From: an uncultured Ignavibacteria bacterium
GTDB lineage: Bacteria > Zixibacteria > MSB-5A5 > SM1-73
Direction of reading: 5' to 3'
Length of the DNA stretch: 64,000 nucleotides
NCBI GenBank assembly: GCA_964348415.1
Contig: CAYGCR010000009.1
Coordinates: 649-64,648, forward strand
Each line of letters begins with the position of its first letter. Position 1 is the first letter of the stretch. The notes below the pieces were generated by a model. That model ran no database searches. It saw only the letters and a program-made list of their open reading frames with translations, and was not told the origin of the DNA. The position numbers were made by a program, and so were the translations under genes. Shown piece by piece: positions 16,868 to 55,999 of the stretch.

Positions 16868-18718
16868 ATGAAGAAGCGGAAAACAAAACCTACCTTAGAC
16901 AAAGTCGAGGAGAGCGTCCAAACCCTCAGACTGAGTGGCTCGAGGAATCTCAAGTCCATCTTCAGAGAACTTTCCAGTCTCAAAGAGAGTTTTCTTAACC
17001 TCAGTTCCGCAAGTCCTGTCGACAAATCGAAAGAGGTAATTGAGGCAGCCTCATCATCTCTGGACAACATTGAGAGGAAAGCTTCCACCCTGGAGAACTC
17101 TCTTAGCGACAACATCCAGAGGCTCAACTCCGAATATGAGCGACGTAAATCCGAGTCCAAGGAGTTGGAAGACGAAAGAAGAACCTTCAAAACCTTGTAT
17201 GAGCTTTCCGACATCATCTATTCTGAAAGGGATGTGAATGCGCTGTTGGAAGAGGTGGTGGATTCGATAATAGAGATTACCTCCTGTGAGCGCTGCTTCC
17301 TGAAAATATTTGATGAGGGCAAAAACGTAAAGCTTTCTATTGCCAAGGACACCGACAAAAAGGAAATCGACGAAGACAGCGAGAACATAAACGAGAAGAT
17401 AACCGAAGCGGCAGCGGAGAGTGGCAATGGAATATGTATTACTCAACTCTTAGCTTCAGAAGTCGATGAAGAAAAAGAAGGTGGTCCTTTTGAGACGATC
17501 TCCATATTGTGCGTCCCCTTGAAGTCGAAGGACAAGGTTCTGGGCATCATCTACCTGGATGACGCCAAGACCGACTCTTACTTCACCCCGGACGATGCTC
17601 TGCTTTTGACGTCGTTGGGTGAGAGAGTGGGAGTAGCTTTGGAGAATAATTTCCTTTTCACCGAACTCAAAGAATCTCAGGAGAAGCTTCTGCAGGACCT
17701 GCGGGGAAGATTCAACTTCGATGAGATTTTGGGAAACAGCCCTCAGATGGTAGAGGTCTTAAAAACTGTAGCGGACGTGGCGGATACCGATGCTACTGTC
17801 TTGATTGAAGGCGAATCTGGAACCGGCAAAGAGCTTTTGGCCCGGGCAATCCACTTCAACAGCGGTCGTTCCAAAAAGCCGTTTGTTCCCATCAACTGTG
17901 CTGCCATCCCCGAGACCCTTCTGGAAAGCGAGCTTTTCGGATACGAAAAAGGCGCCTTCACCGGAGCGGAGCAGAGAAAGCAGGGGAAGTTTGAGAAAGC
18001 AAACGGTGGAACCATCTTCTTGGATGAGATCGGCGAGATGAGCCCGCTTTTGCAGGTGAAGATCTTGAGATTTCTCCAGTCGCGCCAGTTCGAGCCGTTA
18101 GGTTCTAACAGAATAAAAAAGTCCGATGTCCGCATCATCGCCGCCACCAACAAAGACCTTCTCTCACAGGTCAAGGAAAATGAATTCAGAGAGGATTTGT
18201 TTTATCGAATAAACGTGATCAACATAAAGCTTCCACCTTTGAGGGAAAGAAAGTTGGACATCGCACCCTTGGCAGAGTCTTTCGCCATCAAGTTCGGGAA
18301 GAAGAACGGAAAGAAGATCAAGGGGGTTGATCCCGAAGCTTTGAATGTCCTGAGTCGTTATAGTTTTCCCGGCAATATAAGGGAGCTGGAGAATATTATC
18401 GAAAGATCCGTGATCTTAGCACAGAACGACTGGATCACCAGAGAGGATCTTCCCAAAACCCTGTTCGAGGAGAATGATTTCGACTACAAGATCAAAATCC
18501 CTCAGAATTACGGTGAGCTGAAGGCTCTAAAAAAGAAAGCCATCGAGGAGATAGAGAAATCTTTCTTGAATCACATACTGACAATGAGCAACAACGTTGT
18601 CTCCAAAGCTGCAGAAGAAGCCAGAATGCACCGGGTGGAGCTGCACCGATTGATCAACAAATACAAAGAAGATTTCAAAGAATCGAGAAAAGCTAAATCC
18701 GAAGTTTCCCACCAGTAA
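16868..18718 (+). CDS. sigma54-dependent transcriptional activator (NtrC-family EBP) with N-terminal coiled-coil and GAF sensor domain
   Basis: AAA+ sigma54-interaction domain with GESGTGKE Walker A and GAFTGA motif ([10 protein letters not shown]). C-terminal Fis-type HTH. GAF-like region at about aa 130-270. First ATG at 16868 (the ORF track uses TTG at 16832). Confidence 0.9.
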
Positions 18719-19092: not shown

Positions 19093-19617
19093 ATGAAACA
19101 GGAATTCAAGGAAAATCTGTTGAGTCCGCTGCCAGTGGTTTTGGTTGGAGCGATGGTGAACGGCCGTCCAAACTACCTTGTGATCGGATACATCTGTCCT
19201 TTTAACTTCGGAAAACATATTTTCTTCAGCTTGTACAAGAAGCGGTATACAAGTCTTGGAATTCATGAGAGCAAGACCTTCAGCGTAAACATCCCTTCGG
19301 TGGATCTGTTGGCTGAAACGAACATCTGTGGAAGCAAGTCCGGTCGAGATGTCGACAAGGCAAAGCTCTTCGACAACTTTCACGGCGAGCTGAAAACCGC
19401 ACCGATGATTCGCCAATGTCCGATAAACATCGAGTGTGAAGTTGCCCAGATCGTCGACTATGATCCCAACGAAGGGATAATTGGCAGAGTAGTCAAATCA
19501 TATGCAAACCCGGAATGCTTCACAGATGGCAAGCTGGACTGGAGGAAAGTTCATCCCATTATCTGGGCTACCGGCGGTGATTTCAACTACTACCGACTTG
19601 GGGAACGGATCAGCTAG
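19093..19617 (+). CDS. flavin reductase-like FMN-binding split-barrel protein
   Basis: LLSPLPVVLVGAMVNGRPNYLVIGYICPFNF... typical of the Flavin_Reduct (PF01613) family. RBS aaaggagg. Confidence 0.7.
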   Translation: MKQEFKENLLSPLPVVLVGAMVNGRPNYLVIGYICPFNFGKHIFFSLYKKRYTSLGIHESKTFSVNIPSVDLLAETNICGSKSGRDVDKAKLFDNFHGELKTAPMIRQCPINIECEVAQIVDYDPNEGIIGRVVKSYANPECFTDGKLDWRKVHPIIWATGGDFNYYRLGERIS

Positions 19618-19689
19618 GAGGAGTCGGAGCGTAGGTCTTGAGTTCTGTCGGGTCACACTCACCGCAAGGCCCGACACAAACTTCAAATG

Positions 19690-19795
19690 GTCATCGCGAG
19701 GAGCCCCGGCAGAGGCGGGGCTACCCAGCGATCTGCTTCTAAGTAAGCGATTGCTTGGCGAGAGATTGCCGCGCTCCCTGCGGTCGCTCGCAATG
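19690..19795 (+). repeat. about 105-bp repeat element, copy B (downstream of flavin reductase gene)
   Basis: gtcatcgcgaggagccccggcagaggcggggctacccagcgatctg... Hairpin agcccc/ggggct shows compensatory changes relative to copy A. Confidence 0.6.
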
Positions 19796-19981
19796 ACTGC
19801 CTTGCGCATTGGCTTCTCCTCAACTTTTTTCTTGCATTTACCCGTCAAGGTTCGATATTAGTATTGGGCCGCTGGGCGGCCTGTCGACCGTCCACTGTCC
19901 ACCACTAAGGCATCGCGATGGTGGTTGGAGTCGGCGCTGAGTGGTGTTAGCTGCGGACAGTCGACGGTGGACGCATTCTGC

Positions 19982-20068
19982 GGAGGGTTAGTCCTAACTG
20001 GTAAGGCAGTGGACTTGAAATCCACCGGCCGCAAGGCCTTGCGGGTTCGAATCCTGCACCCTCCGCCA
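19982..20068 (+). tRNA. tRNA-Ser (anticodon TGA), long variable arm, CCA encoded
   Basis: GGAGGGT acceptor, anticodon stem-loop GTGGA-CTTGAAA-TCCAC, variable arm CGGCCGCAAGGCCTTGCG, T-arm GCGGGTTCGAATCCTGC, ACCCTCC-G-CCA. Confidence 0.85.
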
Positions 20069-20129
20069 TTTCTTATCCGGATCAAGCTGCTGTTTCGAAA
20101 AGCAAGACCACATTAAGCTCAAACTTTGA

Positions 20130-20636
20130 ATGCCCAAACAAAAGGAGACACAGGTGCAAGTTTTAGTGATGTACTATTCGAGAACCGGAAATACGAAAAA
20201 GCTAGCTGAGGAGATAGCCAAGGGCGTGCGGCAGGTTGAAGGTGTTGATTGTCTGGTGAAGTCGGTCTCCGAAGTGACAGAAGACGATTTCGTCAAATCC
20301 GATGGAATAATAGCCGGCTCGCCCGTGTATTTCGGAACCATGGCCCATCCCATGAAAGAGGTTCTGGACAAGTTTGTTGGCATACGCGGTGAGATGGAAG
20401 ACAAAGTGGGTGCGGCCTTTGCAACCTCCGCAGATCCGTCCGGCGGAAAGGAAACCACCATCTTTTCCATCTTTCAGGCCATGCTGATTTACGGTATGGT
20501 CATCGTGGGAGACCCTTTGAATGCCACCGGTCACTATGGCGTTTCATGTGTCGGTGCACCTGACAGGCAGACTGCCTCCAATGCCGCAAAGCTAGGAAAG
20601 AGGGTGGCGACATTGGTCAAGAAATTGAGGAGTTAG
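20130..20636 (+). CDS. flavodoxin-like fold NAD(P)H-dependent FMN reductase (WrbA/NADPH-dependent FMN reductase family)
   Basis: VLVMYYSRTGNTKKLAEEIAKG ... AGSPVYFGTMAHPMKEVLDKF flavodoxin-like motifs. Confidence 0.7.
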   Translation: MPKQKETQVQVLVMYYSRTGNTKKLAEEIAKGVRQVEGVDCLVKSVSEVTEDDFVKSDGIIAGSPVYFGTMAHPMKEVLDKFVGIRGEMEDKVGAAFATSADPSGGKETTIFSIFQAMLIYGMVIVGDPLNATGHYGVSCVGAPDRQTASNAAKLGKRVATLVKKLRS

Positions 20637-33152: not shown

Positions 33153-33685
33153 CTACGATTCCCCGTAGCGCTCCCAGTGCAGAACTTCAGACAGCGCCTT
33201 CTTCGGCGGAGGCTTGGACCATTGAACCGGTTCACCTAGAGCAATCAGCAACAGGATTCTCCTGTCTTTGGGCACCGCTAGCAGTTCCTTGAATTTCTCT
33301 TCATGCGGACGCATCTGACCTTCAATCCAGCAGCTTCCCCAACCTAAGTCTCTGGCTGTCAATAAGATATTCTGTGTGGCCGCTGATCCATCCTCTCCCC
33401 AGTATTCATGCGACCCATCAAGGACAACTGCAATTATGGCAGATGTTCCGTCAAACTTACCGTCATCCTGTGTGCTAAACTTCCTTCTGGTTCTAAAATG
33501 ACTGGTGATTTGCTTTAGCACACCTCTCCCTGTGTCACAATGATGAAATCCCATCTCTGTTCATTCCTGGCTGAGGGAGCAAGTCTACCTGCATCCACCA
33601 TCTTCTCTAAATCGCTTTTAGGAATCTTCTTTCCGGTAAACGTTCTGATGGCTCTTCTGATCTCAATCGCTTCCCAAACATCCAT
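33153..33685 (-). pseudogene. nitroreductase family gene disrupted by a frameshift
   Basis: N-terminal part MDVWEAIEIRRAIRTFTGKKIPKSDLEKMVDAGRLAPSARNEQRWDFIIVTQGEVC* (33685-33515) is the canonical nitroreductase N-terminus. The C-terminal part (QNILLTARDLGWGSCWI) continues in the +1 frame (ORF 33153-33554). Single-nt indel near cagggagaggtgtgctaaag, no homopolymer. Confidence 0.65.
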
Positions 33686-33755: not shown

Positions 33756-36095
33756 CTACTTGTTTTTGACCTCACACAAAACCGCATGAAACGGATTCAA
33801 AATCACCTGTCGGGGCTCCAGAGGTGCTTTGGGCAATTCATACTTATTGTGAGGCTTGTCCACCCACAACCGCAGCACCGCATACATATCCCCGCCGAAA
33901 TCCAAAAGCACCGGAACCCACATCTTGAAATCCTCCGGAACCTTTTCCTGGGTAATCTCACAGGTCACGACGTATTTGTCGGCCACTTGCTCGATGTCGT
34001 AAGAGAATATGTAAGTTGGGATATCAACGCCGTAAACCCATTGATCGAAGAACCAGTCCATATCCTCGCCCATGTGCTTCTCCACAATCTCCTTGAAATC
34101 CTCGGTGCAGGCGTTCTTTCCCCGGTAAGTTTCGGCGAAATCCCTCATCATCTCTTTGAACCGATCATCGCTTTTGGTGTCAAAGTCCATCATTATGTTT
34201 CTGAGCATGTGCACCACGTATGCGCCCTTTTCGTAGACCAAGATGCCATAGTCCTGGGACTTTGATGAATTGAGGCGCCGTCCCAACCATATAGGTCCCA
34301 CTTTTGAACCCTCAGCCCATTTGTACCCCTTTCCCGTGATGTCCTTTCGCCATTCCTCAAGCTCTTCGAAGAAAGCCTCATTGTCCTGCATAGACATCTG
34401 GGCATACCAAACTCCGGAGTATTCGGCAAAACCCTCACAGAGCCACTGATCATGGTACCTCTCCCATCCCACAACGTTTCCCCACCATTGGTGAGAGACT
34501 TCGTGCGCGCGAAACGACTCGGTCCGAAACCTCGTCTCCTGGATTGCCTCATCTACTGCAAATGTTCCCCAAGACAGCCGCAGCAGTCCCGGCAGGCCCT
34601 GACCATAGAAAGAGGGAATCTCAGTGGCTGCGATCTTGGAAAAAGGGCAATCGCCGTAGATGGTCTGAAAGAAATTCAAGCTGTTAACAACGTCTGCTGC
34701 TACGCTTTCCTTGGATTTCTTATATTTCGTCATCATTTTTCTGTGACTTTTCTCCAAATGGTAAACGCAGACCGGAGGTATCCCCTCCATATCTACCTCG
34801 TAAGTCTCGAATTTCCCGTAGTTGAATGATGCCACAGAAACGGGGATGTCCTCAATCCATCGAGTACACAGAGAGTCGCCCTCAACCCACTCCTCTGCTT
34901 TCTGTCCTATCGAGATCAGCTGGTATCCCTCAGGACACTTGAAAGTCAGATCATAGGTGGCTCTCTTGAGATAACCATATTGGGGATACCAAAAGGTAGA
35001 AGACCTGATATAGAGGTCTCCGAGCCAGTCCTGCAAGATTATCTGTTTGGCAGAATACTTGAAGGTCAACTTGCGCTCCTCGCCTGACCTGGTTGGGCGG
35101 GAAAGGAACACAGAAACTCCATATTGCTCATCCCTCTCCTTGACGAAGAAAAGCGAATCGCCCTCATCGTCTGCAATTCGCTCGATTTCCAGGTCTCCGT
35201 GCAGATCAAAATCGATCACCTTAACACCATCCACTAAACTCTCAAAATCCATCTCTACAGCTGCGGATAGTTCTTCCTTGATGTTAATGCTCACCTCCAT
35301 CTTGTAGTAGGTCACTTTGATCTCATCCTTGTCTTCATGGGGAATAGGAGTGTATTTCTCAAGCGGGTTCTTAAGGTAATCTTCTGCTCTGTGAAAGGAG
35401 CAAACCAAGTCGCGCGCATCTATTCCGGGCCTGGGATCGGGCTTTTCCAGGCTCACCTCTTCCACCTGTTTCGGATCGAAGGTGAAAAAAAGGCGGCCTA
35501 AGTCTTTTGTTTCGATGTCCGCGTAGAAGAAACCGTTCGCTCGATCGGGGTGGCTGGTCAGGTATGATGAATCAGCCAGAATGTCGGACAGAACGCGAAC
35601 CCAGAGGTTTCCGCCGGTCTCTTTCAAGAACCGTCTCGGGGCATCTTTCCTCAGGAACTCGGGGGCTGTCATCATTTCTGCCTTAGAGAAACTCAGCATG
35701 CGTTCCAATTCCCTATCGGTCGAGTCAGAAAACAACATATACAGCTTCTCAAACTCTTCCGATAGAGTCCCCTGCTTCGTGAACCGCCTCAACTGATATC
35801 GCTCGATCTCCGTGGGTGGTGAGAACTCAAAAACTCCCTCTCCCACAAAAACCGCTCCGATGCTTCTCCCCTGCACCGGCTCGAACGCGTGTATCCTTCC
35901 CTGATTGAGCCTGAAAACTGCCACGTCCCTTTTCAAGACCAAGCTCTCCACTCTGGCCACCATGTTCTCGTCGAACGAGATGTTCTTGATCTGGTCATAA
36001 AGATTCGCCCATTGATCGAGCTCTTGTCCGAATGAAATCCCAGCCGCTGCAAGACCAATGACTATCAACAGTGAAATCATCTTGAGGGCTCTCAT
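33756..36095 (-). CDS. secreted M1-family zinc aminopeptidase (aminopeptidase N-like)
   Basis: HEVSHQWWGN...x18...EGFAEY zinc motif (HExxHx18E). Signal peptide MRALKMISLLIVIGLAAAGISFG. Start ATG 36095 with RBS gggggtgagg (the ORF track extends to 36263). Confidence 0.85.
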   Translation of the reverse strand: MRALKMISLLIVIGLAAAGISFGQELDQWANLYDQIKNISFDENMVARVESLVLKRDVAVFRLNQGRIHAFEPVQGRSIGAVFVGEGVFEFSPPTEIERYQLRRFTKQGTLSEEFEKLYMLFSDSTDRELERMLSFSKAEMMTAPEFLRKDAPRRFLKETGGNLWVRVLSDILADSSYLTSHPDRANGFFYADIETKDLGRLFFTFDPKQVEEVSLEKPDPRPGIDARDLVCSFHRAEDYLKNPLEKYTPIPHEDKDEIKVTYYKMEVSINIKEELSAAVEMDFESLVDGVKVIDFDLHGDLEIERIADDEGDSLFFVKERDEQYGVSVFLSRPTRSGEERKLTFKYSAKQIILQDWLGDLYIRSSTFWYPQYGYLKRATYDLTFKCPEGYQLISIGQKAEEWVEGDSLCTRWIEDIPVSVASFNYGKFETYEVDMEGIPPVCVYHLEKSHRKMMTKYKKSKESVAADVVNSLNFFQTIYGDCPFSKIAATEIPSFYGQGLPGLLRLSWGTFAVDEAIQETRFRTESFRAHEVSHQWWGNVVGWERYHDQWLCEGFAEYSGVWYAQMSMQDNEAFFEELEEWRKDITGKGYKWAEGSKVGPIWLGRRLNSSKSQDYGILVYEKGAYVVHMLRNIMMDFDTKSDDRFKEMMRDFAETYRGKNACTEDFKEIVEKHMGEDMDWFFDQWVYGVDIPTYIFSYDIEQVADKYVVTCEITQEKVPEDFKMWVPVLLDFGGDMYAVLRLWVDKPHNKYELPKAPLEPRQVILNPFHAVLCEVKNK

Positions 36096-36314
36096 AACCT
36101 CACCCCCTGAGTTCTGTCGGCTTGTCGTTTCAATGAAGTTACCCGTGAAAAAGGTAACTATACCCAACCAGATTAATATAGGCGGAGACTGTATAAATGT
36201 AAAGCAACTTTTGTTTCCGTCCTTAAGAGTGGCCTGGGCCGAGACGATAAACAAATTTGTCAAGCTGGGTAGATTATCTGTTCTTTAAAATAAATCGCAA
36301 AAGGAGGGGCATCC

Positions 36315-36884
36315 ATGAACGGAGCCATGTTCAACAGTCTGGCTCGCTTCATCGATAAGAATTATCCCCAGGTTTCCTTCACCGATCTTTGTCAGAAGGC
36401 AGCTTTGAAAACCAATATCTTCGCTGAATTAACCTGGTATCCAGATAAAGATTTTTCAAACCTCGTGCAGGCTTTAAGCGACCAGACAGACATACAGGTC
36501 TCTGCACTCTGGAGAGAGTTGGGAAGAGAAACTTTCACCTACTTTGCTGACATCTTCGGCGACTATATGAACCAGGTCAAAAGCTTTCCCGATATGATCA
36601 CAGCAGTAAACAGGATTCACCATGACATAAAGCACGATGGGCTGGGAACTCCTACCCGTCTGGAATTCAGAAAAGCCTCGCAGGACCAGTTTGAAATCAG
36701 ATACTCCTCAGATAGAAGTTTCAACGATTTCTTCTTGGGAATGTTAGAGGGCGCCGCCAGGCATTTTCAATCGGAGGTGAAGATCCTCGGAAGAAAGGAA
36801 AGAGGAAAACTCATCGTTACCATCAAGCTCAAAGAACCTGAGATGGCGATAGTCAAGCTAAGGGCATCCAGTCTTGTTCGATAA
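36315..36884 (+). CDS. stand-alone H-NOX (haem nitric oxide/oxygen binding) domain protein
   Basis: Aligns along its length with Tt H-NOX: MNGAMFNSL..., proximal His in NRIHHD, Y-x-S-x-R haem-propionate motif in EIRYSSDRS, and GMLEGAARHFQSE ~ GLIEGSSKFFKEE. Distal-pocket Tyr replaced by Phe (FNDFFLG). Confidence 0.8.
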   Translation: MNGAMFNSLARFIDKNYPQVSFTDLCQKAALKTNIFAELTWYPDKDFSNLVQALSDQTDIQVSALWRELGRETFTYFADIFGDYMNQVKSFPDMITAVNRIHHDIKHDGLGTPTRLEFRKASQDQFEIRYSSDRSFNDFFLGMLEGAARHFQSEVKILGRKERGKLIVTIKLKEPEMAIVKLRASSLVR

Positions 36885-36997
36885 GTCCTCCTTGCATGGG
36901 TAAACGGCGGAGTTTGCCGGAACCTCTTCGAAAAGTAAGGGTGGAGCCTCAGCTCCACCCTTTTTCGCGGGGTCGTCCCGACTCTTCTTGCGGAGAG

Positions 36998-38404
36998 TCA
37001 TTTTCCAATACAGAATTCAGAAAATATCTTATTCAAGATGTCATCGGTGACCGTTTTCCCGATCACCTCGCCGATTGCATCCAGCCCAGCTCTCACATCC
37101 AGCGCCACAAACTCCGGACTCATACCCTTCTTCAAGCTGCCTCTTGCCAAAAACAGGCTTCTTTTTGCTCTGGTGATAGCATCTTTATGCCTTAAGCTTG
37201 AGATGATCACGCTTTGAGTCCGGTCCTTCTGTAGGACGCGGGAGGTCGATACGATCGTCTCCTTTAGCCGCTCGAGACCTTCTCCTGTCAGAGCAGAGAC
37301 CTTGACTATCGACCCCTCCGTAAGCCTTTCCTGGTTTTTTGCTATCAAATCGGGCAGAGCTATGTCAATTTTGTTGAATACGGTCAGGTATTTCACCTCT
37401 TTCATTTGCCCTTGTAGATCCAGATCCTCTTGGTCGACCTTAATGGAGGTGTCGATGACCAGAAGGAGTAAATCCGCCTCACTCATCTCGATCTTTGTTC
37501 TCCTGATCCCTTCCAGTTCGATGGTATCTCCGGAGATGCGGTAGCCCGCCGTGTCCACCAATCTCACCGGGATTCCCTGTAAGTTGGCGTATTCTGAGAT
37601 GACGTCCCTGGTGGTTCCGGGGATGGGTGTCACAATCGCTCGATCCTCCTTAAGAAGAGCGTTCAGCAGGCTGGACTTGCCCACGTTGGGCTTGCCCACG
37701 ATGACGACGTTCAAGCCTTCTTTGAGAATCTTGCCCTCCCCATACGTGGCAAGCAGATTCTGCAGCTCCTTTTCGATTGATTCAATCTCCTCAAGAGTCT
37801 TGTTCCTATCCAGAGGCTCCACATCTTCCTCTGAAAAATCTATTTCCACCTCAAGCCTGGCCAGCATGTCGATTAATCGGTCTCGATAGGAGTTGATCTT
37901 CTCTGAAACATCGCCTTTCAAGTGTTTCAGAGCCAGTTTAAGTCCCAGATCGGTCTTAGCCCTGATTAGCTCTGCCACAGCTTCCGCCTGGGAGAGATCT
38001 ATTCGCCCGTTGATGAAGGCTCTCAGGGTGAATTCGCCTGGCTCCGCCAATCTGGCGCCGCATTTTAGCGCCTGCTCCAGCACTCTTGTCAAAACCAGCT
38101 GCCCTCCATGACAGCTTATCTCAACCAAGTTTTCCGCAGTATAGCTTTTGGGAGCAGCGAAGACGGTAAGGAGAACCTCATCCACAACTTCGTTAGTCTC
38201 AGAATCAACTATTTCGCCATAACTGACCCGGTGTGAAGAAAGCTGGTCAACTGACCTTTCTCCTTTAAAGATTTTTCCGGCGATTTTGATGGAGTCCTTG
38301 CCGGAGATGCGAACTACGCCTATCCCTCCCTCACCCAACGGGGTGGAGATTGCAGCTATTGTGTCCTCAAGCCCTGAAGCGGTATCTCTTCCCTTCTTTG
38401 CCAT
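36998..38404 (-). CDS. mnmE: tRNA modification GTPase MnmE (TrmE)
   Basis: G-domain NVVIVGKPNVGKSSLLNALL. C-terminal CIGK motif. 468 aa. Confidence 0.95.
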   Translation of the reverse strand: MAKKGRDTASGLEDTIAAISTPLGEGGIGVVRISGKDSIKIAGKIFKGERSVDQLSSHRVSYGEIVDSETNEVVDEVLLTVFAAPKSYTAENLVEISCHGGQLVLTRVLEQALKCGARLAEPGEFTLRAFINGRIDLSQAEAVAELIRAKTDLGLKLALKHLKGDVSEKINSYRDRLIDMLARLEVEIDFSEEDVEPLDRNKTLEEIESIEKELQNLLATYGEGKILKEGLNVVIVGKPNVGKSSLLNALLKEDRAIVTPIPGTTRDVISEYANLQGIPVRLVDTAGYRISGDTIELEGIRRTKIEMSEADLLLLVIDTSIKVDQEDLDLQGQMKEVKYLTVFNKIDIALPDLIAKNQERLTEGSIVKVSALTGEGLERLKETIVSTSRVLQKDRTQSVIISSLRHKDAITRAKRSLFLARGSLKKGMSPEFVALDVRAGLDAIGEVIGKTVTDDILNKIFSEFCIGK

Positions 38405-38622: not shown

Positions 38623-40176
38623 TCAGTCGCAAGGCGGTGAGCCTCCTCTAAACAAGTAGCTTATTACATAGACCACATCACCGGATTGAACTACACCGTC
38701 ACAGTTAGCGTCCCCAGCCTGCAAGATCGGGAGCGGCGGGGTCCCACCTCTGAACAAATAGCTTATCAGATAGACCACATCTCCAGCCTCAACGGCCCCG
38801 CTTTGATTGACATCTCCGCGCCAGAATTGAGCATATCTAATGGTGGTACAATCCTTCACAGTCAAGATCCCATCACTGAACCCGTTGACGTACACATTGC
38901 CAACGCTGTCCACTGCCAGGTCACGCCCGCCGTCAAAGCCAGCAACCGGTCCACCGTATGGTCCATCGTATCTTTCCACCCAGACCTCGTTACCTGAAGG
39001 ATCGTACTTGATGGTGGCGTAGTCGGGGTCTCCTTCTGTGCCAGGAGTTTGCCCGGTGACATAGACGTTTCCGGAATCATCTACTGCCAAAGCAAAAGCG
39101 CAATCGAAGGCACCCTCTACACCGTACAGCCTTACCCAAAGCTCATCACCCGAGGCATCATAAACTATGGTGCCATAGTCCTTGCAGTCGTATCACCCGC
39201 CCTCCATGTGGCTGGCCCCTGTCACATAAACTCGGCCCTCATGATCCACGGCTATGGCTTTGGGTACATCCGGCCCGTCTCCAGGACCGTTGTACCTTCT
39301 TACCCAGGCGGTGTCACCATTCGGATAGTACTTTATCGTGACGTAGTCGTCGTCTGAATCAGTGCTGTAACTTGTCCCGGTTACGTAGACATTGCCGGAA
39401 GCGTCCACAGCGACGGCTCTACCCGCATCCGCTCCGTTTCCCGGACCGTTGTACCTGCCCACCCAGGCGGTATCTCCGTCAGGATAGTACTTTATGGTTG
39501 CGCAGTCCGTGGCTGTCTCACTGGCGTAACTTTCTCCGGTTACGTAAGCAAAACCGAAATCATCTATGGCCAAGGCGTGAGCGCAATCAAGTTGATTTCC
39601 GGGTCCGTCGTAAGTCCTCAGCCAGGCTGTATCGCCGTTTGGATAGTACTTTATGAGGACATAGTCCTCATTTGTTTCCTCGTCGAGACTTTGTCCAGTG
39701 ACATATGCATTGCCGGAAGCGTCCAGCTCTACGGCCGTGGCAAAATCCTCGCCGTTGCCAGATCCATTATGCCGCCATACCCAGACCTCGCTGCCGGAAG
39801 AATCATACTTTATGGTGGCAATGTCTGAGTCCGTCCCCACTCCAAAGCTCCATCCGGTCACGTAAACGTTACCCGAGCCATCCACAGCTATGTCCTCAGT
39901 CACGTCATTCGAGCCGGCCGGTCCGTCGTAGCTTCCAACCCATTTAGCAATTCCATCTTTCGAGTACTTTATGGTAAGATAGTCGGTCGTGATGATATCA
40001 GAGACGTAACTGTTACCTGCAACGTAGAGATAGCCGGAAGCATCTAAAGCTAAGGCACCGCCTTCGACGATTGCCGGTCCGGCGTATCTCCTCACCCAGG
40101 CGGTATCGACGGACTGGGCAGCGGCAGACGCGCTAGCCAAAAGCAAAATCGCCAATATACAGAACTTTCTGGTCAT
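38623..40176 (-). CDS. secreted SBBP beta-propeller-repeat protein with C-terminal double dockerin-like module, containing an in-frame TGA (39193-39195). Candidate selenoprotein or disrupted gene.
   Basis: Signal peptide MTRKFCILAILLLASASAAAQ. About 8 repeats SGNVYVTG.S....DY.TIKY..G...W. The reading frame continues uninterrupted through TGA (…VTGASHMEGG-TGA-YDCKDYGTIVYDASG…) into ORF 38623-39090, which ends with two dockerin-like Ca loops (GDVNQSGAVEAGD / GDANCDGVVQSGD). Confidence 0.55.
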
Positions 40177-40197
40177 ACTCCGACTCCTACCTTAGGT

Positions 40198-40530
40198 TTA
40201 GGGGTTAGCCTTGCTCTCATGTGGCTTCTGGCAGAACTGTTTCGTCTCCTTGTATTTGCCGATGAACTCCTGATGTGACATGAACCCGTAATAGGTCTCC
40301 GGTTTGTCCGGCTCAAGTTCGTAAGCTTTATGAAGTACAGAGACGTCCTTCACGCCGTAGTGATTCCAGAATCTGAGAGGGTAGTACTCATAAGTGCCGG
40401 GGCTTCTCCGGCTTGCCGTCTAGGGACTGACTGCGCACGCGTAATCGAAGCACAGGAGCAGGAAAAAGAATATCCACAGTGCGTGGTGAAATCGTCTGGT
40501 GATTCTGATCCTCCTCATCTTGAGATTCAT
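40198..40530 (-). pseudogene. small secreted protein ORF interrupted by an in-frame TAG (40420-40422)
   Basis: Strong RBS aaggagg-ATG. MNLKMRRIRITRRFHHALWIFFFLLLCFDYACAVSP-TAG-TASRRSPGTYEYYPLRFWNHYGVKDVSVLHKAYELEPDKPETYYGFMSHQEFIGKYKETKQFCQKPHESKANP*. Signal-peptide-like N-terminus. Not in the ORF track because of the amber codon. Confidence 0.3.
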
Positions 40531-40843
40531 GCCTCCTTTGGCAGTGGCATCTCACCCTTTAATACGCACCACGTTCAGATGGGTTCAGAGTTTTTTCCAG
40601 AAGCCGGCTTCAGCCAACAGCGTCGGATAGGCCTTGCGACCATATCCGACCTAACTTTCTAACGAGAGCCACTGCGCAAGCCGATTTCCACAATATCATT
40701 TACAATGGCCTCACTTGCAGAAGGTCGGTGTTGGCACTTTGTTTCTGCAAACTCGTACTTATCCTTTGTGACTCTAATTGGCTGCCTCTTTCCCGCTACC
40801 ATGATGTGCGACTTGCTTTTATCTAGTGTTATCTGCAATGATA

Positions 40844-40865
40844 GGGGCGGGATGAATTCCCGCCC
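40844..40865. repeat. palindromic hairpin repeat GGGGCGGG-ATGAATTC-CCGCCC (copy 2)
   Basis: Identical core to copy 1. Located 3' of the 40977-42815 gene on the minus strand. Confidence 0.6.
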
Positions 40866-40976
40866 TTATCAGATCCACGATTTACTTGTTGGGGTCGCAC
40901 TCATGCGGCCGGTGGGCCTCCGTCCTTCGACAGGCTCAGGATGGTCAGTTTAAGGTCAGACTCATCTGCCTGAAGC

Positions 40977-42815
40977 TTAACCACAGCCTGGCGGGTCACC
41001 GTTTCTGAAAAGGTAGTTGACCAGAAAGACCACGTCACCGGGTTCAACCGCGCCGTCACAGTTGGCATCTCCGGCCCACAGAGGATAGGGAGGAGAATCA
41101 CCTCTGAAAAAGTAGTTTATCATATAGACTATATCCGAAGGGTCAACCACCCCGTCTGCGTTAGCGTCGCCCCGCAAGAAGACCTGGAAGGTCCAAGTTT
41201 CGGTTGACCAGGTTTCTGCATACTCATCATAAGCTCTCACCTTCCAGTAGTAGGTCCCCAGATCAAAGGCAGCCGTGTAACCGCTAGTCAAGAGGCCTCC
41301 GCAGACAGCCGTGGAGTCCGGATGGAAGGAAGGAGAATGACTGACATACAGGTCATATCTCACTTCGTCCAGGGGATCGGGGTCTATGGCATCTTCCCAT
41401 TCGAAGATCACAATGAAACTCAAAAGAGAGCTGTCCGGGGGCATAAGGAGGGAAAACGCATCAGGAGGGGAGTTCTCCACATACTTTATGGTGGCGTAGT
41501 CGTATCCTGTGGCACCACCTTCACTATAACCGGTCACGTAGACGTTGCCGGAATCGTCCAAAGCTATGTCACGCCCCCCGTGCCAGCCCTCTGCCTGCCC
41601 GTGGTACCTTTGTATCCAAGCCACGCTCCCCAAAGAATCATACTTAATGGTGGCATAGTCCACGTACGGTGACATATCCATACTCTCTCCGGTTACGTAG
41701 ACATTGCCGGAATCGTCTACTGCCAGAGCATAAGGTCGATCAGAGTCGAAAGGTCCGTAGTACGTTGCTTCCCAAAGGACATTACCCGAGGCACCATAAA
41801 CTATGGTGCCGAAACAGCTGCAGGACGCTCACCCGGTCGAGGTTCGGAGGGCTCCTGTCACGCAGACTCGACCCCCGGCATCAACCGCCAAATCATACGG
41901 TCTATCCGGTCCGTTCACCGGACCATTATATCGTCTTGTCCAGGCAGTATCTCCATTTGGGTAGTACATTACCGTGAGGTAATCCTTGTCAGTGCTCTCT
42001 AAGTAACTCTGACCTGTCACATATACGTTACCCTGTGGGTCTACAGCTATGGCAAGAGCTGCATCCCAGGCGGCACCCGGACTGGTGAATCGCCGCACCC
42101 ACGCGGTGTCACCGTTTGGATGGTATTTTACGGTGGCATAGTCGAAGCCCGTCGCCGCGGTCAGGCTTTGTCCGGTCACCAGGATGTAACCAGACTCGTC
42201 CAAGGCCACCGCCGTAGCGTAATCGTAGTCGTTGTCCGGGCCGTCGTATCTCCTCAGCCACAGGGTGTCTCCGGCAGGGCCATACTTTATTGTGACATAG
42301 TCCCTGTTTGTGTCCTCATACAGGCCTTGGCCGGTCACATAGACATTCCCCAAATCGTCCGCGGCTACCCCCGTGGCAAAATCCTCACCGTTAGACGTTC
42401 CGTTATACCTCCTGACCCAAAGCTCGTTTCCGGAGCCATCATACTTCACGGTGGCCCAATCCACCCCTGTTTCAGAGCCGGTGCTCCAGCCGCTCACGTA
42501 CACATTTCCAGAAGCGTCCACTGCTATCACGTTGGCCACGTCATCGAGGCCGGCCGGTCCGTCGTATCTTCTGACCCAGGCGGTGTCTCCATCTGGAAGA
42601 TACTTTATGGTGAGATAGTCCCACCATGTCCCACTGCCGGTACTGTATCCGGTGACGTACGCGTTGCCTGATCCATCAACTGCTATAGCCAGAGCCTTGT
42701 CCCAGGCGCTTGCCGGCCCGTCGTATCTGCTTACCCAAGCGGCTCCCATGTTCTGAGCTACTACCGGCGTACTTGCCAAAAGCAAGATCACAAAAACGAA
42801 AAACGTTCTGGTCAT
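40977..42815 (-). CDS. secreted SBBP beta-propeller-repeat / dockerin paralog with in-frame TGA (41829-41831) at the position homologous to the neighbouring gene. Candidate selenoprotein.
   Basis: Signal peptide MTRTFFVFVILLLASTPVVAQ (ATG 42815). Frame continues …VTGALRTSTG-TGA-ASCSCFGTIVYGASG… into ORF 40977-41681. C-terminal dockerin-like loops (GDANADGVVDPSD / GDANCDGAVEPGD). 33 nt downstream of the TGA are nearly identical to the paralog. Confidence 0.55.
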
Positions 42816-43096
42816 GCGGCGACTCCGTTTTGAAGGTGAGGAGCAGAATAGATGTCTTCTCTTGTATGAAGGTGTTCCACCACTACTATAACTCAAAAAT
42901 CCGAAAAATCAAGAAAAATCTTTCCCTGCGAACGCATACCTTGTCCCCTTCCCAGATCGCAGGTGTTAGGCAACAGTGACACGTTGACTCACAGTGTGCA
43001 TTGGGCCTTTCCTTAGTGCTCCCCATCAAGCGGATGAGAACAGATCAGTAGTAGGGGTCGCATTTATGTGACCCGCGGGTTCTATGAATTGAACCC

Positions 43097-51050: not shown

Positions 51051-53285
51051 GTGAAGCGAATTTTAGATGTATTTGCTTTAGCTCTGCTTCTATTCATTTC
51101 TGTAGCTCCGGTTCAGACCGCGTGCGCCGGGGATTCAGATGATCCACCAAAGGGATTCATATTTACCGACCAGAATACGACTCCTCGTCAATACCATCGG
51201 ATGCTGGCCGAGATGAAACAGAAAAGGCTGAATCAACTGCTCCAGTCAGGGAGATCCATACCCACCAAGGGGACTCTGGCTCAGAGTCATTACGACGTCA
51301 AGTATTACCGGCTGGATGTGAACCTGAACGACACCACCGAGATCATATCCGGCTCTGTTTACATGTATGCTCAGGCCTTAATTGACGGCTTCAACACAGT
51401 GGAACTCAACTTCTTCGAGAATCCCCAGATGTATATAGACTCCGTCAAGAGTGGCGGTGTGCCTCTCTCCTTCACCTGGAGCAATGACATTGTCACCATA
51501 ACGCTGAACGACACTTACAATCAGGAACCATTCAACCTGATCGTCTACTATCACGGGCACCCTCTGGAGGGAGGCCTTCAATCCTTTAGCTGGGGATATC
51601 ACGGGAGTCCTCCGATGCCGATGATCTGTACGGTCAGCTGTCCCTATTTTGCCCAGGCCTGGTGGCCCTGCAAGGACCTTCCCAGGGATAAGGCGGATTC
51701 GGCAGATATCAGCATAACCGTCCGTTCAGACTTGTATGTCGCATCGAACGGGCTTCTCAGAGACATAGTTGATCAGGGGTCGACGAAAACATACAAGTGG
51801 CATGAGGGATACCCCATAACCACCTATTTGATCTTCGTTTCAGCGACAGACTACTCCATTTTTTCAAACTGGTATCATCCCCTTCAAGGAGATTCCATGC
51901 AGGTCATCTACTACGTTTACCCCGAACGCCTTTCCCAGGCTCAGGCTCTTTACCCTATGACTCCCTCCGCGATTGAGTTTTATGCCGGCTTATTTGGGGA
52001 GTATCCCTTTTTGGAGGAAAGGTACGGGATGGCTCATTTCACCTGGGGTGGCTGCATGGAACATCAAACCTGCGCCAGCATGTCCTCTTCCTGGTACTCG
52101 CAATGGGTTCTGGTACACGAGTTGGCCCACCAGTGGTGGGGGGACTACATCACCTGCCACAACTGGCACCACACCTGGTTAAATGAAGGATTTGCAACCT
52201 ACTGCGAGGCTCTTTGGGCGGAGCACACCTATGGCGAAGATTATTATCACTCCTACATGGACGGTATCGACTACTTCCTTGGGGGAAGCATCTTTGTGCA
52301 AGACACCACCGATGTCTATAGTGTGTTCGGAACGATAGTGTATGACAAAGGAGCTTGGGTATTGCATATGCTGCGCCACGTTGTCGGAGATTCGGCGTTT
52401 TTTGAGATTCTCAGAACATACTATTCGGATCCGCGTTTCGCTTACGGAGTTGCAGAAACTCAGGATTTCCAGGATATCTGCGAAACTGTCTCCGGCATCG
52501 ATTTGGACTATTTCTTCGACCAATGGATCTACGGAACCTATTATCCCCGCTATCAATATTCGTACACCTGGGAATCAGTAGGGGGAGGTTACTACGACGT
52601 GTTCATTCATATTGGGCAGACTCAATCCACTGAACCTACCCACTTCACCATGCCGGTTGACATAACCGTTAGCACGTACTCTATGGATACCTTGGTAACG
52701 GTTTTCAATGATCCCAGACACAAAGATTTCATAGTCCGTGTTCTCTCCGCGGGTATCAACGTGGATGTGGACCCGGACAGGTGGATTTTAAGATCGGTCT
52801 CTTCCACCTCTTATGGGATGAACATAATCACCACCGATTTGCCCCCGGACTCCCAGTTCTACGCTTACGCGGAGACGCTTGTGGTCAAAGGTGGAACTGC
52901 TCCCTATACCTGGGAGGTGGAAAGCGGCAGCCTGCCGGACGGACTGGAGTTGGACTCTGTAACTGGGGTCATCTCCGGTGTCCCAACGGTTTCGGATAGC
53001 TTCGATTTCACCATCAAGGTTACCGACTCAAGCTCACCCGGCAAAACTGATACCCAGGAGCTCTACGTCGTGGTAACGGAGACTCCATTTATGCATGGGG
53101 ATGCCAATCACGACTTTGTGATAGACGGGGCAGATGTAATATACATCATCAACTATCTCTACCGGAGTGGCCCCGAGCCCTTTCCCTGGGATGCCGGGGA
53201 TGTCGACTGTGACGGAATAGTAGGCCCGGGAGATGTGGTCTATCTGCTCAATTACCTTTTCAGAAACGGCCCCCCTCCCTGCTAA
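51051..53285 (+). CDS. secreted M1-family metallopeptidase with C-terminal double dockerin-like module (paralog 1)
   Basis: GTG start. Signal peptide. HELAHQWWGDYITCHNWHHTWLNEGFATY (HExxHx18E). C-terminus GDANHDFVIDGAD...GDVDCDGIVGPGDVVYLLNYLFRNGPPPC. Confidence 0.8.
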   Translation: MKRILDVFALALLLFISVAPVQTACAGDSDDPPKGFIFTDQNTTPRQYHRMLAEMKQKRLNQLLQSGRSIPTKGTLAQSHYDVKYYRLDVNLNDTTEIISGSVYMYAQALIDGFNTVELNFFENPQMYIDSVKSGGVPLSFTWSNDIVTITLNDTYNQEPFNLIVYYHGHPLEGGLQSFSWGYHGSPPMPMICTVSCPYFAQAWWPCKDLPRDKADSADISITVRSDLYVASNGLLRDIVDQGSTKTYKWHEGYPITTYLIFVSATDYSIFSNWYHPLQGDSMQVIYYVYPERLSQAQALYPMTPSAIEFYAGLFGEYPFLEERYGMAHFTWGGCMEHQTCASMSSSWYSQWVLVHELAHQWWGDYITCHNWHHTWLNEGFATYCEALWAEHTYGEDYYHSYMDGIDYFLGGSIFVQDTTDVYSVFGTIVYDKGAWVLHMLRHVVGDSAFFEILRTYYSDPRFAYGVAETQDFQDICETVSGIDLDYFFDQWIYGTYYPRYQYSYTWESVGGGYYDVFIHIGQTQSTEPTHFTMPVDITVSTYSMDTLVTVFNDPRHKDFIVRVLSAGINVDVDPDRWILRSVSSTSYGMNIITTDLPPDSQFYAYAETLVVKGGTAPYTWEVESGSLPDGLELDSVTGVISGVPTVSDSFDFTIKVTDSSSPGKTDTQELYVVVTETPFMHGDANHDFVIDGADVIYIINYLYRSGPEPFPWDAGDVDCDGIVGPGDVVYLLNYLFRNGPPPC

Positions 53286-53776
53286 GGGGAGTAGTTCGGT
53301 TGAAGCTGACCAATATCGCCTCCGTCGGTGAGAAGCTACCGGGGCTCTCTTTCTGTGCTTGATTTGTTAGAATCATATGCTTGGTACGAAATCACCCGTT
53401 CTAATCTTAGATCAGATTGCACCCTCAGAGATCCGATCGGGACATGTTTGCCGGAAGTTCTTCTGCTGCAGATGAGAGAGAACTGCGTTTTGGCTGATCG
53501 GGTCCGTAGAATTTACAGCTATTGCCCACGCCTTTCTGGAAGCTTAATCAGATTTGATTCGACTTTATCGTCTCATCAGTCGTATTTAGATGTTAGCCTC
53601 TGAGGCCTTGACCACCGAGAGCGTGGATCATGTCAAAAGAGCAGAAAATTGTTGACAAAAGTGGACATTGTATTAAATTAAAATTAGGCTAAACTGATAA
53701 GGTAAGTCGGGTTTAGCTTTTTTGTTGGGCTGTTTTGCTCCGGTCATCAATTGTGATCCTTCTCAGGAGGTTTTCC

Positions 53777-55999
53777 ATGAAATGCCTTGTAAATGTTTTT
53801 GCTTATAGTTTTGCTGTCCTGGTCGCTGTCTTTTGGAGCCAGAATCTTCCGGCCCAGCAATCAGGTCAACGGTCCGGTGAGGTTTTGTTCACCGACGAGA
53901 ACACAACTCCGAGTCAGTTCCACCAGATGCTGGCAGAGATGAAGCAGAAAAGGTTGAACCGGCTACGTGAGCTGGGGAAAACTACTCCCATCAAGGAGAC
54001 TGCAGCTCAGGCTCACTACGACGCCAAATACTACCGTTTGGACTTGACCTTGAATGACACCACCCAGATCGTCTCCGGATCAGTCTACATGTATGCGGAA
54101 GCCTTGATCAACGGATTCAACGTGTTGGAGCTTAACTTCTTCGATAATCCCCAGATGTATGTTGATTCGATCAAAAGCAACGATGCTTTTCTATCCTTTC
54201 TCTGGAGCGATGACATCATCCGAATCTTCTTGAACCAGATTTATAATCACGAGCCTTTCGACGTCACCGTCTACTATCACGGGCATCCTTTGGAGGGTGG
54301 CCTTCAATCGTTTGATTGGGGCTATCACGGAAGTCCTCCCAAGCCGATTATGTGCACCCTAAGCGAGCCGTATTTTGCCCAAGCCTGGTGGCCTTGCAAG
54401 GATCTTCCCAGGGACAAGGCGGATTCGGCAGACATTAATGTAACCGTGCGGTCGGATCTATATGTGGGCTCCAATGGGCTTTTGCGAGAGATCGTGGACC
54501 ACGGCTCAACCAAGACCTACAAGTGGCACGAGAGATATCCCATTACCACCTATTTGATCTCTATCGCGGCCACCAACTACACTATCTTCTCCAATTGGTA
54601 TGAATCCTTGAGCGGAGACTCCATGGAGGTCATATACTATGTGTATCCGGAGAAGCTGTCCCAAGCACAGGCGCTGTGGCCCATCACCCCCTCCATGATC
54701 GAGTGCTACGCCACGCTGTTTGGAGAGTATCCCTTCCTGCAGGAGAAATACGGGATGGCGCATTTCACCTGGGGTGGTGCCATGGAGCATCAGACCAACA
54801 CCAGCTTTTCCTCCACCTGGTACTCCGAATGGGTGGTGGCGCATGAGCTGGCACACCAATGGTGGGGGGACTATATCACCTGTCACAATTGGCACGACAT
54901 CTGGCTCAATGAGGGGTTTGCCGTTTACTGCGAGGCGCTCTGGGCGGAATGGGAATATGGAAAAAGCTACTATCACACCTACATGAACAGCTTCGCCTAT
55001 TGGGGGGGAGGAACCATATTTGTCGAGGACACAACCGACGCCTGGAATATCTTCGCCCCCATAGTGTATGACAAAGGGGGATGGGTTCATCACATGCTGA
55101 GGCACGTGGTGGGGGACTCTACCTATTTTGATATCATGAGAGCTTATTACTACGATCCCCGATTCGCCCACGGTGTGGCGGAAATCGAAGATTTCCAGGA
55201 GGTGTGCGAGACGGTCTCCAGCATGGATTTAGACTATTTCTTCGACCAATGGATCTACGGAACCTACTATCCCAAGTATAAGTATTCAACTTTTTCGGAA
55301 CCTGTTGGGGATAACCAATATGACGTTTACGTTCACATAGATCAAAGCCAGACCACAGACCCCACCTATTTCACCATGCCCATTGACATTCGCATAGTCA
55401 CCTATGACATGGATACAATTGCGGTGGTGTTCAACGATCCCCGACATCAGGATTTCGTTTTCCGGGTTAACTGGGGCATTGCTGGTCTTGAATTGGACCC
55501 GGACAGATGGATACTGCGAACGTCCAACACGGACATCTATGGCCTCAATATAGTCACCACCGATCTACCCCCTTCCAGGTTGGGCTCTGCTTACGCAGAA
55601 ACTCTTCTGGCCAAGGGAGGCACAGCCCCCTATGGGTGGGCAGTGTCGAGTGGCGATGTGCCGGACGGACTGGAGTTGGATTCGGTAGCCGGAGTCATCT
55701 CCGGCATCCCTACGGTAGTAGACAGCTTCGATTTCACCATCATGGTCATCGACGATGACCTAAATACCGACACGCAAGGATTCCACATCATGGTGAGGGA
55801 GTTCATGCGAGGGGATGCCAACAACGACTCGATGGTTGATGCCGGAGATATCGTCTACCTAATCACCTATCTGTACCGCAATGGGCCTGAGCCTGTTCCA
55901 TATGAGGTTGGCGACGTTAACTGCGATGGAGAAGTCAATGCGGCGGACGTAGTTTATCTGATCAATTACCTTTTCAGAAACGGGCCACCGCCGTGCTAG
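53777..55999 (+). CDS. secreted M1-family metallopeptidase with C-terminal dockerin-like module (paralog 2, tandem duplicate)
   Basis: About 70% identical to 51051-53285. HELAHQWWGDYITCHNWHDIWLNEGFAVY. C-terminus GDANNDSMVDAGD...GDVNCDGEVNAADVVYLINYLFRNGPPPC. ATG 53777 with RBS caggagg. Promoter-like TTGACA at 53653. Confidence 0.8.
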   Translation: MKCLVNVFAYSFAVLVAVFWSQNLPAQQSGQRSGEVLFTDENTTPSQFHQMLAEMKQKRLNRLRELGKTTPIKETAAQAHYDAKYYRLDLTLNDTTQIVSGSVYMYAEALINGFNVLELNFFDNPQMYVDSIKSNDAFLSFLWSDDIIRIFLNQIYNHEPFDVTVYYHGHPLEGGLQSFDWGYHGSPPKPIMCTLSEPYFAQAWWPCKDLPRDKADSADINVTVRSDLYVGSNGLLREIVDHGSTKTYKWHERYPITTYLISIAATNYTIFSNWYESLSGDSMEVIYYVYPEKLSQAQALWPITPSMIECYATLFGEYPFLQEKYGMAHFTWGGAMEHQTNTSFSSTWYSEWVVAHELAHQWWGDYITCHNWHDIWLNEGFAVYCEALWAEWEYGKSYYHTYMNSFAYWGGGTIFVEDTTDAWNIFAPIVYDKGGWVHHMLRHVVGDSTYFDIMRAYYYDPRFAHGVAEIEDFQEVCETVSSMDLDYFFDQWIYGTYYPKYKYSTFSEPVGDNQYDVYVHIDQSQTTDPTYFTMPIDIRIVTYDMDTIAVVFNDPRHQDFVFRVNWGIAGLELDPDRWILRTSNTDIYGLNIVTTDLPPSRLGSAYAETLLAKGGTAPYGWAVSSGDVPDGLELDSVAGVISGIPTVVDSFDFTIMVIDDDLNTDTQGFHIMVREFMRGDANNDSMVDAGDIVYLITYLYRNGPEPVPYEVGDVNCDGEVNAADVVYLINYLFRNGPPPC

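Follow-up and report, generated by a model that had tools for sequence, protein, structure and literature searches.

Bacterial H-NOX signalling is known almost wholly from Proteobacteria, and the partner of the sensor is read off the neighbouring gene. The nitric oxide (NO)-selective HnoX proteins of that group, which include Shewanella oneidensis SO2144 (HnoK), Vibrio proteins, Legionella Hnox1 (GGDEF-EAL) and the Shewanella woodyi protein (HaCE), are single domains of about 180 residues whose genes usually adjoin, or share an operon with, a gene for a histidine kinase (HK) or a diguanylate cyclase/phosphodiesterase (DGC/PDE) (PMC8738867). A second type is Tt H-NOX, the sensor domain of a methyl-accepting chemotaxis protein (MCP) of Caldanaerobacter (Thermoanaerobacter) tengcongensis (PDB 1U4H and 1U55, among others), which forms one chain with a membrane MCP and uses W9, N74 and Y140 to bind O2. 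A third is the H-NOX domain found in soluble guanylate cyclase (sGC) beta-1, the N-terminal domain of a multidomain eukaryotic enzyme with its output covalently attached, which is NO-selective without a distal Tyr. Here we describe an H-NOX gene in a 64,000-nucleotide stretch of contig CAYGCR010000009.1 (the window; all positions are counted from its first letter), from a genome titled uncultured Ignavibacteria bacterium and placed by GTDB in the Zixibacteria. This gene belongs to an isolated H-NOX clade that is confined to a single phylum, consistently has no partner gene and keeps a conserved promoter-like region of its own.

The gene and the residues of its product to which we refer below are as follows.

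36315-36884, plus strand: H-NOX (HNOB) coding sequence, identified by its open reading frame (ORF), Pfam and PDB matches and predicted structure.
Key residues: H102, predicted proximal ligand; Y130-S132-R134, predicted propionate triad; L9/T73/F139, predicted apolar distal pocket.
Further residues: G70 and G142, conserved glycines; C26, the sole invariant Cys; T114, at the position of a Pro.

The ORF begins with ATG and encodes 189 residues that form a single domain, with HNOB as the only family found. A Pfam search matched HNOB (PF07700) to residues 3-157 across profile positions 2-161 of 163, with E=5.6e-27 and a score of 95.1 bits, where the curated cut-off is 25.5 bits; the NCBIfam scan of the protein returned no specific model. 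Among PDB sequences, Tt H-NOX chains score best (E ~2e-14 to 7e-14), and the H-NOX proteins of Shewanella, Kordia and Nostoc come next. The phmmer alignment with Tt H-NOX is limited to residues 43-175, and in a global alignment 49 of the 166 aligned positions are identical (~30%). An AlphaFold2 model built from a 57-sequence family alignment (predicted local distance difference test, pLDDT, 79.2; predicted template modelling score, pTM, 0.76) was aligned by Foldseek over ~182 columns to H-NOX structures from every class, Tt, So, Ns and Ka among them, with template modelling (TM) scores of 0.78-0.81, and the top 45 PDB matches of this search are all H-NOX or sGC structures (TM 0.7-0.81). The model thus has the H-NOX fold, in which a helical distal subdomain is joined to an alpha/beta proximal one. 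The ORF product is thus an H-NOX family member, and each defining feature that could be tested was found in it; by its sequence, it is predicted to bind haem b.

We mapped the residues of the haem site through a pairwise alignment with Tt H-NOX and through a 153-sequence alignment that includes Tt, which gave the following equivalences.

Tt H102 corresponds to window H102 (proximal haem-ligating His, helix F).
Tt Y131/S133/R135 corresponds to window Y130/S132/R134 (YSSDR, propionate triad).
Tt Y140 corresponds to window F139 (FNDFFLG).
Tt W9 corresponds to window L9.
Tt N74 corresponds to window T73.

In the alignment, the proximal His and the YxSxR residues share their columns with those of Tt and of 146 out-of-clade proteins. 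Within the clade, H102 is invariant (57/57), as are L9 and F139, and T73, Y130, S132 and R134 are each conserved in at least 90% of the sequences. All three residues of the Tt hydrogen-bond network for O2 are replaced in the window protein (W9L, N74T and Y140F). The preliminary description of this DNA had proposed, from the letters alone, an H-NOX protein that aligns with Tt H-NOX along its full length, with the proximal His and the YxSxR triad in place and with Phe for the distal Tyr. The profile search bears out the family, and the His, the triad and the Phe align as it had proposed, with the two other network residues replaced as well; the full-length alignment is carried by the global and Foldseek alignments, the phmmer match being shorter. 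Neither of the outcomes it had named as fatal, failure of the profile search or misalignment of the His or YxSxR residues, was encountered.

The rule that a distal Tyr marks O2 binders and its lack marks NO-selective proteins was tested on the 146 best out-of-clade relatives. Among the 24 of MCP length (>=450 aa), W9 is present in 20, N74 in 21 and Y140 in 21. Among the 120 short stand-alone relatives (<260 aa), position 140 is L in 56, F in 46, V in 10 and Y in 4, and position 9 is L in 73 and F in 35. The L9/T73/F139 pocket predicted for the window protein therefore carries the stand-alone, non-O2 signature, unlike the MCP-fused Tyr class; the W/N/Y network is found only in the relatives of MCP length. 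Since the distal Tyr is described as requisite for O2 binding (PMC8738867), and given this pocket signature, the window H-NOX is well predicted by the rule to be NO-selective.

Set against the described systems, the window protein is like Tt H-NOX in fold (TM 0.78-0.80), in its proximal His and YxSxR triad and in overall length, but it differs in the distal pocket, has Thr114 where Tt has Pro115, and stands alone: it ends at residue 189 with no C-terminal transmembrane or MCP domain, and MCP seeds matched nothing in the window. It is likewise a single domain with a Tyr-less apolar distal pocket, as in Proteobacterial HnoX, and it aligns to PDB 4U9B and 4U99 with TM 0.80-0.81, at a sequence identity of only ~20%. 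With the sGC beta-1 domain, it has in common the fold (TM ~0.72) and the logic of a proximal His with YxSxR, at ~18-20% identity. As judged from the alignments, then, the window H-NOX resembles stand-alone NO-selective HnoX in pocket and architecture but lacks their hallmark of an adjacent HK or DGC/PDE gene.

The gene context in which this lack is seen involves three genes on the opposite strand.

33153-33685, minus strand: nitroreductase-family gene (Pfam), the commonest H-NOX neighbour in the clade.
33756-36095, minus strand (listed ORF 33756-36263): M1-family peptidase gene (Pfam), divergent from H-NOX.
36998-38404, minus strand: mnmE, tRNA modification GTPase gene (Pfam), convergent with H-NOX.

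The ancestral order, as read across the clade, is parB-parA-gidB-mnmG-(bPH)-nitroreductase-(M1 peptidase), then H-NOX transcribed away from these genes, then mnmE transcribed towards it, and on to gyrA, such that H-NOX is the only gene on its strand and both flanking genes are opposite. Pfam scans of the substantial ORFs of the 64-kb window found no HK, response regulator (RR), MCP, GGDEF or EAL domain, and a six-frame search of the window with HK, RR and MCP seeds gave no match. In six relatives with Pfam-annotated contexts, there was no HK or GGDEF/EAL gene within 8-10 kb of H-NOX. We also pooled the 148 ORFs that lie <=3.5 kb from H-NOX in 38 distinct loci. The families found among them include nitroreductase (22), M1 peptidase (12), MnmG (10), MnmE (7), bPH_2 (6), dockerin (6) and MazG (4), and no signalling family is among the 25 commonest; BLAST of the HK, RR and MCP seeds against these 148 ORFs gave no match, while the seeds do find one another. 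Three relocations of the H-NOX gene were also seen, with no signalling gene beside any of the relocated copies.

L010: H-NOX between MazG and radical-SAM genes.
L011: H-NOX between MazG and CysS genes.
L014: H-NOX next to a methyltransferase gene.

The nearest out-of-clade relatives served as positive controls. P0095 and P0097 are also stand-alone H-NOX proteins (176-186 aa; the P0095 pocket reads F/S/F), with 26-28% identity to the window protein and 55-63 bits as compared with 306 bits in the clade, but their genes lie in signalling operons, RR-RR-RR-RR-hybrid HK-H-NOX-HK for P0095 and H-NOX-HK-RR for P0097. In a third out-of-clade relative, P0096, another gene overlaps the H-NOX stop codon. 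Proteobacterial hnoX genes usually have their partner close by, whereas the Zixibacteria clade never does in 38 loci. Because a partner is absent from these loci and after relocation while the out-group sits in HK operons, we conclude that the orphan state is real, conserved and clade-specific. It had been noted earlier that no kinase or cyclase gene lies nearby and that the neighbours are an M1 peptidase gene and mnmE on the opposite strand, and both statements hold for the window, the first also, within the 25 commonest families and the seed searches, for the 38 loci and the three relocations.

In a divergent subclade (L007:10673-11161, L009:10665-11138, L044, L051 and L055), a gene for a 163-aa protein lies 64-126 nt downstream of H-NOX on the same strand. 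Its product is 69-75% identical between loci, matches no Pfam family, has a lipoprotein-like N-terminus and ends in '...GTVWIDDIRLL'. Since no other subclade has this gene, the window lacks it and its product looks like a lipoprotein where the sensor is cytoplasmic, it is unlikely to encode the partner. A 99-aa ORF that follows H-NOX in the window (36896-37195, plus strand) matches no family and is antisense to mnmE, and it was treated as spurious.

Among 5.8 billion proteins, we found 91 homologues of the window H-NOX at 60-96% identity, all of them HNOB-only and, bar a few truncated fragments, ~180 aa long; the few with an organism label are from Candidatus Zixibacteria metagenome-assembled genomes (MAGs). 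A HMMER search of 1.84 billion representatives at 50% identity showed the clade as one full-length representative (306 bits) and three short fragments, and the best match outside it scored 63 bits at 26% identity. The clade is sharply isolated, since the next match drops from 306 to 63 bits. Sixteen GTDB species-representative genomes, with records named either Zixibacteria or 'uncultured Ignavibacteria'/'uncultured bacterium', carry a clade H-NOX, as do 35 further metagenome loci. The 'uncultured Ignavibacteria bacterium' title stands on the H-NOX-carrying MAGs L011, L012, L013, L019, L020, L022 and L024. Most of the MAGs so titled share with the Zixibacteria records the order parB-parA-gidB-mnmG...H-NOX...mnmE-gyrA, with MnmG and GyrA at 77-90% identity, and the titles probably reflect coarse automatic labelling. 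In the literature, we found no paper that joins H-NOX with Zixibacteria, nor the phrase 'orphan H-NOX'. The median ratio of nonsynonymous to synonymous substitution rates (dN/dS) is 0.11 over 306 unsaturated H-NOX pairs, with synonymous sites near saturation, and we conclude from this ratio that the gene is functional and under purifying selection.

The region upstream of H-NOX is also constrained, and ~130 nt of it are conserved across the clade far beyond synonymous sites. The elements found there and downstream of the gene are the following.

36189-36212, strand unassigned: box A, CTGTATAAATGTAAAGCAACTTTT, kept in altered form in the relocated copies.
36223-36228, plus strand: box B, TTAAGA (within C-T-T/C-A-A-G-A/G), -35-like, 17 nt upstream of the hexamer in box C.
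36243-36251, plus strand: box C, which contains the -10-like hexamer GATAAA at 36246-36251.
36300-36309, plus strand: strong Shine-Dalgarno sequence AAAGGAGGGG, kept in all orthologous loci; a gap of 5 nt separates it from the ATG.
36937-36965, plus strand: predicted intrinsic terminator between the convergent H-NOX and mnmE genes.

The GACGATA of box C is present in every upstream region compared and takes the form GACGATAA in most, with the window copy at 36243-36250. In 33 of 35 distinct upstream regions, 13-14 nt separate the matched boxes B and C, equal to a hexamer spacing of 16-17 nt. Counts of this bipartite motif are 47 upstream of H-NOX genes and 5 elsewhere in 578 kb, and it is unique in the window; because it is essentially restricted to H-NOX upstream regions, no regulon can be read from it. 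Boxes A-C go with the H-NOX gene into its relocated contexts. From their sequences, boxes B and C fit a sigma70-type promoter, TTAAGA-N17-GATAAA, with a leader of ~55 nt, and a two-part operator is an alternative reading of them because the hexamers are non-canonical. For the divergent M1 peptidase and nitroreductase genes, a minus-strand promoter is predicted at 36203-36175 (TTTACA-17-TATATT), and its -35 element overlaps box A. The listed M1 peptidase ORF begins with TTG at 36263, and an ATG at 36095, preceded by GGGGGTGAGG, gives a signal-peptide-like MRALKMISLL... start. The ATG is the likelier start, since the TTG extension would run through the conserved non-coding box A, and the divergent intergenic region would then measure 219 nt. 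The region 36189-36251 would hold either back-to-back promoters or an operator. A riboswitch or structured 5' leader, to which the conserved blocks had also seemed to point, was considered and rejected, as there was no Rfam match and RNAalifold on 21 diverse leaders returned 0 base pairs, and for this reason we prefer a promoter or operator that works at the DNA level. Readings of box A as a sigma54 element or a LexA box were also rejected by eye, the spacing and core bases being a misfit.

The terminator has an 11-bp stem with the GC-rich core GGGTGGAGC/GCTCCACCC, a 4-nt loop and a following UUUUU, and it folds with a free energy (dG) of -26.4 kcal/mol (z = -4.7), a value that none of 200 shuffled sequences reached. 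From the opposite-strand flanks, the terminator and the travelling boxes, H-NOX is predicted to be a monocistronic unit transcribed from its own conserved promoter. We ruled out a truncated MCP or gene remnant by the dN/dS of ~0.11, the uniform ~180-aa length of the 91 homologues and the terminator. In the divergent subclade that has the 163-aa gene (here L040-L044, L049, L058, L007 and L009), the leader is longer, with 96-134 nt after GACGATA, and contains repeated ACCAT(T) and a AACCATTTT...AAAATGGTT inverted repeat beside the ribosome-binding site; this repeat could form an attenuator-like hairpin.

Taking these results together, we consider that the window gene probably encodes a cytoplasmic, single-domain haem-b H-NOX gas sensor of a Zixibacteria-specific clade, transcribed as a monocistronic unit from its own promoter and acting on a partner in trans. 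Ferrous haem on His102 would take up NO (and CO) but not O2. Ligand binding would then break or strain the Fe-His bond and move the distal subdomain against the proximal one, as it does in the characterised members of the family, and a partner whose gene lies elsewhere in the genome would read this change. The stand-alone H-NOX proteins characterised so far all suggest, by analogy, that an HK or a cyclic di-GMP (c-di-GMP) enzyme would be the most likely partner. As to the signal, NO from the organism's own nitrite reduction or from neighbouring organisms would be the most plausible. The first Zixibacteria genome encodes an NO-forming NirK, lacks any known NO reductase and respires aerobically (PMC3903129), which fits the pattern of a facultative organism with an NO-selective H-NOX drawn in a review of the family (PMC8738867). 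As no lineage has a partner in cis, the partner must either be encoded elsewhere or be dispensable to H-NOX.

Several observations weigh against the trans-acting sensor. Haem binding, ligand selectivity and signalling output are all predicted from the sequence, and absence of the distal Tyr is necessary for the exclusion of O2 but may not suffice for it. The window protein has Thr114 (codon 36654-36656) at the haem-distorting Pro position (Tt Pro115), where the Pro is kept in 113/120 short and 22/24 long relatives (~94% of the out-group) and is also the clade consensus; a few close relatives of the window protein have Ser there. Thr114 could flatten the haem and shift its redox or ligand properties. 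In the orthologue P0021 (L003:8001-8543), from a locus with window-like synteny, the triad Tyr is Leu and the triad Ser is Thr (EIRLSTGRD), and haem binding may be weakened in that lineage. From Thr114 and the triad loss in P0021, it follows that haem properties may vary. As for the partner, the survey covers 64 kb of this genome and <=10 kb per side of its relatives, and a partner elsewhere is an assumption; the seeds covered HK, RR and MCP proteins, and the families listed were the 25 commonest, such that a rare GGDEF/EAL neighbour is possible in a few loci.

The same absence of a partner could mean that the protein has none and binds NO or CO in order to buffer, store, scavenge or carry gas or haem without signalling. 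At least three relocations of H-NOX as a lone gene with its own promoter, the lack of a signalling neighbour in 38 loci and the lack of a known NO reductase in the RBG-1 Zixibacteria (PMC3903129) are in keeping with such a binder. Against it, no characterised bacterial H-NOX acts as a partner-less binder (general knowledge and PMC8738867), a stoichiometric binder would give little protection, and the conserved G70 and G142, which we take to be the hinge glycines common to all H-NOX groups (PMC8738867), would speak for a switch over a passive binder. We therefore regard this explanation as unlikely, although it is the strongest of those that compete with a sensor acting in trans. Somewhat less credible is a coupling of H-NOX to the divergent nitroreductase-family flavoprotein through a shared bidirectional promoter region, in which, for example, H-NOX would sense NO or redox state and the flavoprotein would reduce or repair a nitrosative product or haem. 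The nitroreductase is the commonest neighbour (22/148 ORFs) and is directly divergent from H-NOX, or separated from it by the M1 peptidase alone, in most loci; box A overlaps the predicted minus-strand promoter, and a published neighbourhood network places a nitroreductase near hnoX in another group (PMC8738867). This association, however, lies inside the conserved housekeeping block parB-parA-gidB-mnmG...mnmE-gyrA and may for that reason be inherited synteny. Moreover, the M1 peptidase sits between the two genes in many loci, the relocated copies L010, L011 and L014 have no adjoining nitroreductase, and the window nitroreductase gene is frameshifted. The broader proposal that the clade is truly partner-less and has an output mode new to the family, as a free NO/CO binder or through a non-canonical target such as a nitroreductase-type flavoprotein, expressed from a dedicated promoter/operator (TTAAGA-N16/17-GATAAN plus box A) bound by a regulator, is in our judgement possible but doubtful.

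Three further explanations appear very improbable. For an O2 sensor like Tt H-NOX, one could cite the Tt chains as top PDB sequence matches and the oxic-anoxic interfaces that many Zixibacteria inhabit, but the O2 hydrogen-bond network is gone, with L9 and F139 invariant and T73 in at least 90% of the clade, and in relatives the W/N/Y network goes with the MCP fusion, whereas the window H-NOX has no MCP domain and ends before the terminator. A haem-independent thiol/redox sensor that works through Cys26, as proposed for haem-free Vibrio cholerae H-NOX, would agree with the invariance of this Cys in the clade and with the haem-independent redox sensing described in the review (PMC8738867). We give it scant credence, in that a single invariant Cys means that the zinc site of 3-4 Cys in the haem-independent mechanism is absent, and the haem ligand and propionate triad are strongly conserved. 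The last of the three is the idea that H-NOX passes an NO signal to c-di-GMP levels and hence to a pilus ATPase encoded in the window.

12690-14333, plus strand: PilB/MshE-type ATPase gene, in a separate plus-strand pilus cluster.

The preliminary description had presented this ATPase as MshE-type and c-di-GMP-responsive and had thought a link from NO through c-di-GMP to pilus or biofilm conceivable. A PilB/MshE-type ATPase is indeed present, but its responsiveness is less certain: it passes the NCBI MshE-related c-di-GMP motif model narrowly (40.8 bits, cut-off 38), and its N-terminus (12690-12860, plus strand) has two 24-residue MshEN-like motifs with the canonical 5-residue gap in which the lead Arg is replaced, by Ser in copy 1 and by Lys in copy 2. 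Characterised H-NOX pathways often end in c-di-GMP (PMC8738867), which together with the motif match is what speaks for the link. Between the two genes, however, lie 22 kb and more than 15 genes, Pfam scans found no GGDEF/EAL gene in the 64-kb window, and nothing besides the shared contig connects H-NOX with the ATPase. The link thus finds no backing in the window and we hold it to be highly unlikely.

The outcome that we expect as most likely is an ordinary H-NOX domain in a trans-acting HnoX, and if this is true the gain is incremental. Even so, because a whole clade keeps a constrained H-NOX and never has a partner beside it, guilt-by-adjacency fails for part of the H-NOX family, and the clade offers a clean trial of other ways to identify H-NOX partners, such as co-occurrence, screens for interaction or prediction of complexes. 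The protein would also equip for NO sensing a widespread lineage of sediments and aquifers that makes NO by NirK and has no known NO reductase.

Among the remaining features of the window, the frameshift in the nitroreductase gene is seen from its L003 orthologue, residues 1-56 and 51-173 of which match different frames with a junction at ~33518-33533; the gene is either a pseudogene or affected by an assembly indel. A 628-aa protein with GAF and sigma54-activator domains, NifA/NorR-like and with ~130 additional N-terminal residues, is encoded at 16832-18718 (plus strand) and is followed by flavin reductase and flavodoxin-like genes at 19093-20636. We considered this activator as a NorR-type NO sensor and rejected it, as it falls below every NCBIfam equivalog cut-off (409/529 bits for NifA and 342/476 bits for NorR), which leaves its function unassigned. 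At 38623-42896 (minus strand), there are four consecutive SBBP beta-propeller-repeat genes, two of which have C-terminal dockerin-type domains, and the first may represent the 3' portion of a gene that is split. Two more M1-family peptidases, with He_PIG Ig and dockerin domains, are encoded at 51051-55999 (plus strand), and dockerin-tagged secreted proteins recur near H-NOX in other Zixibacteria loci.

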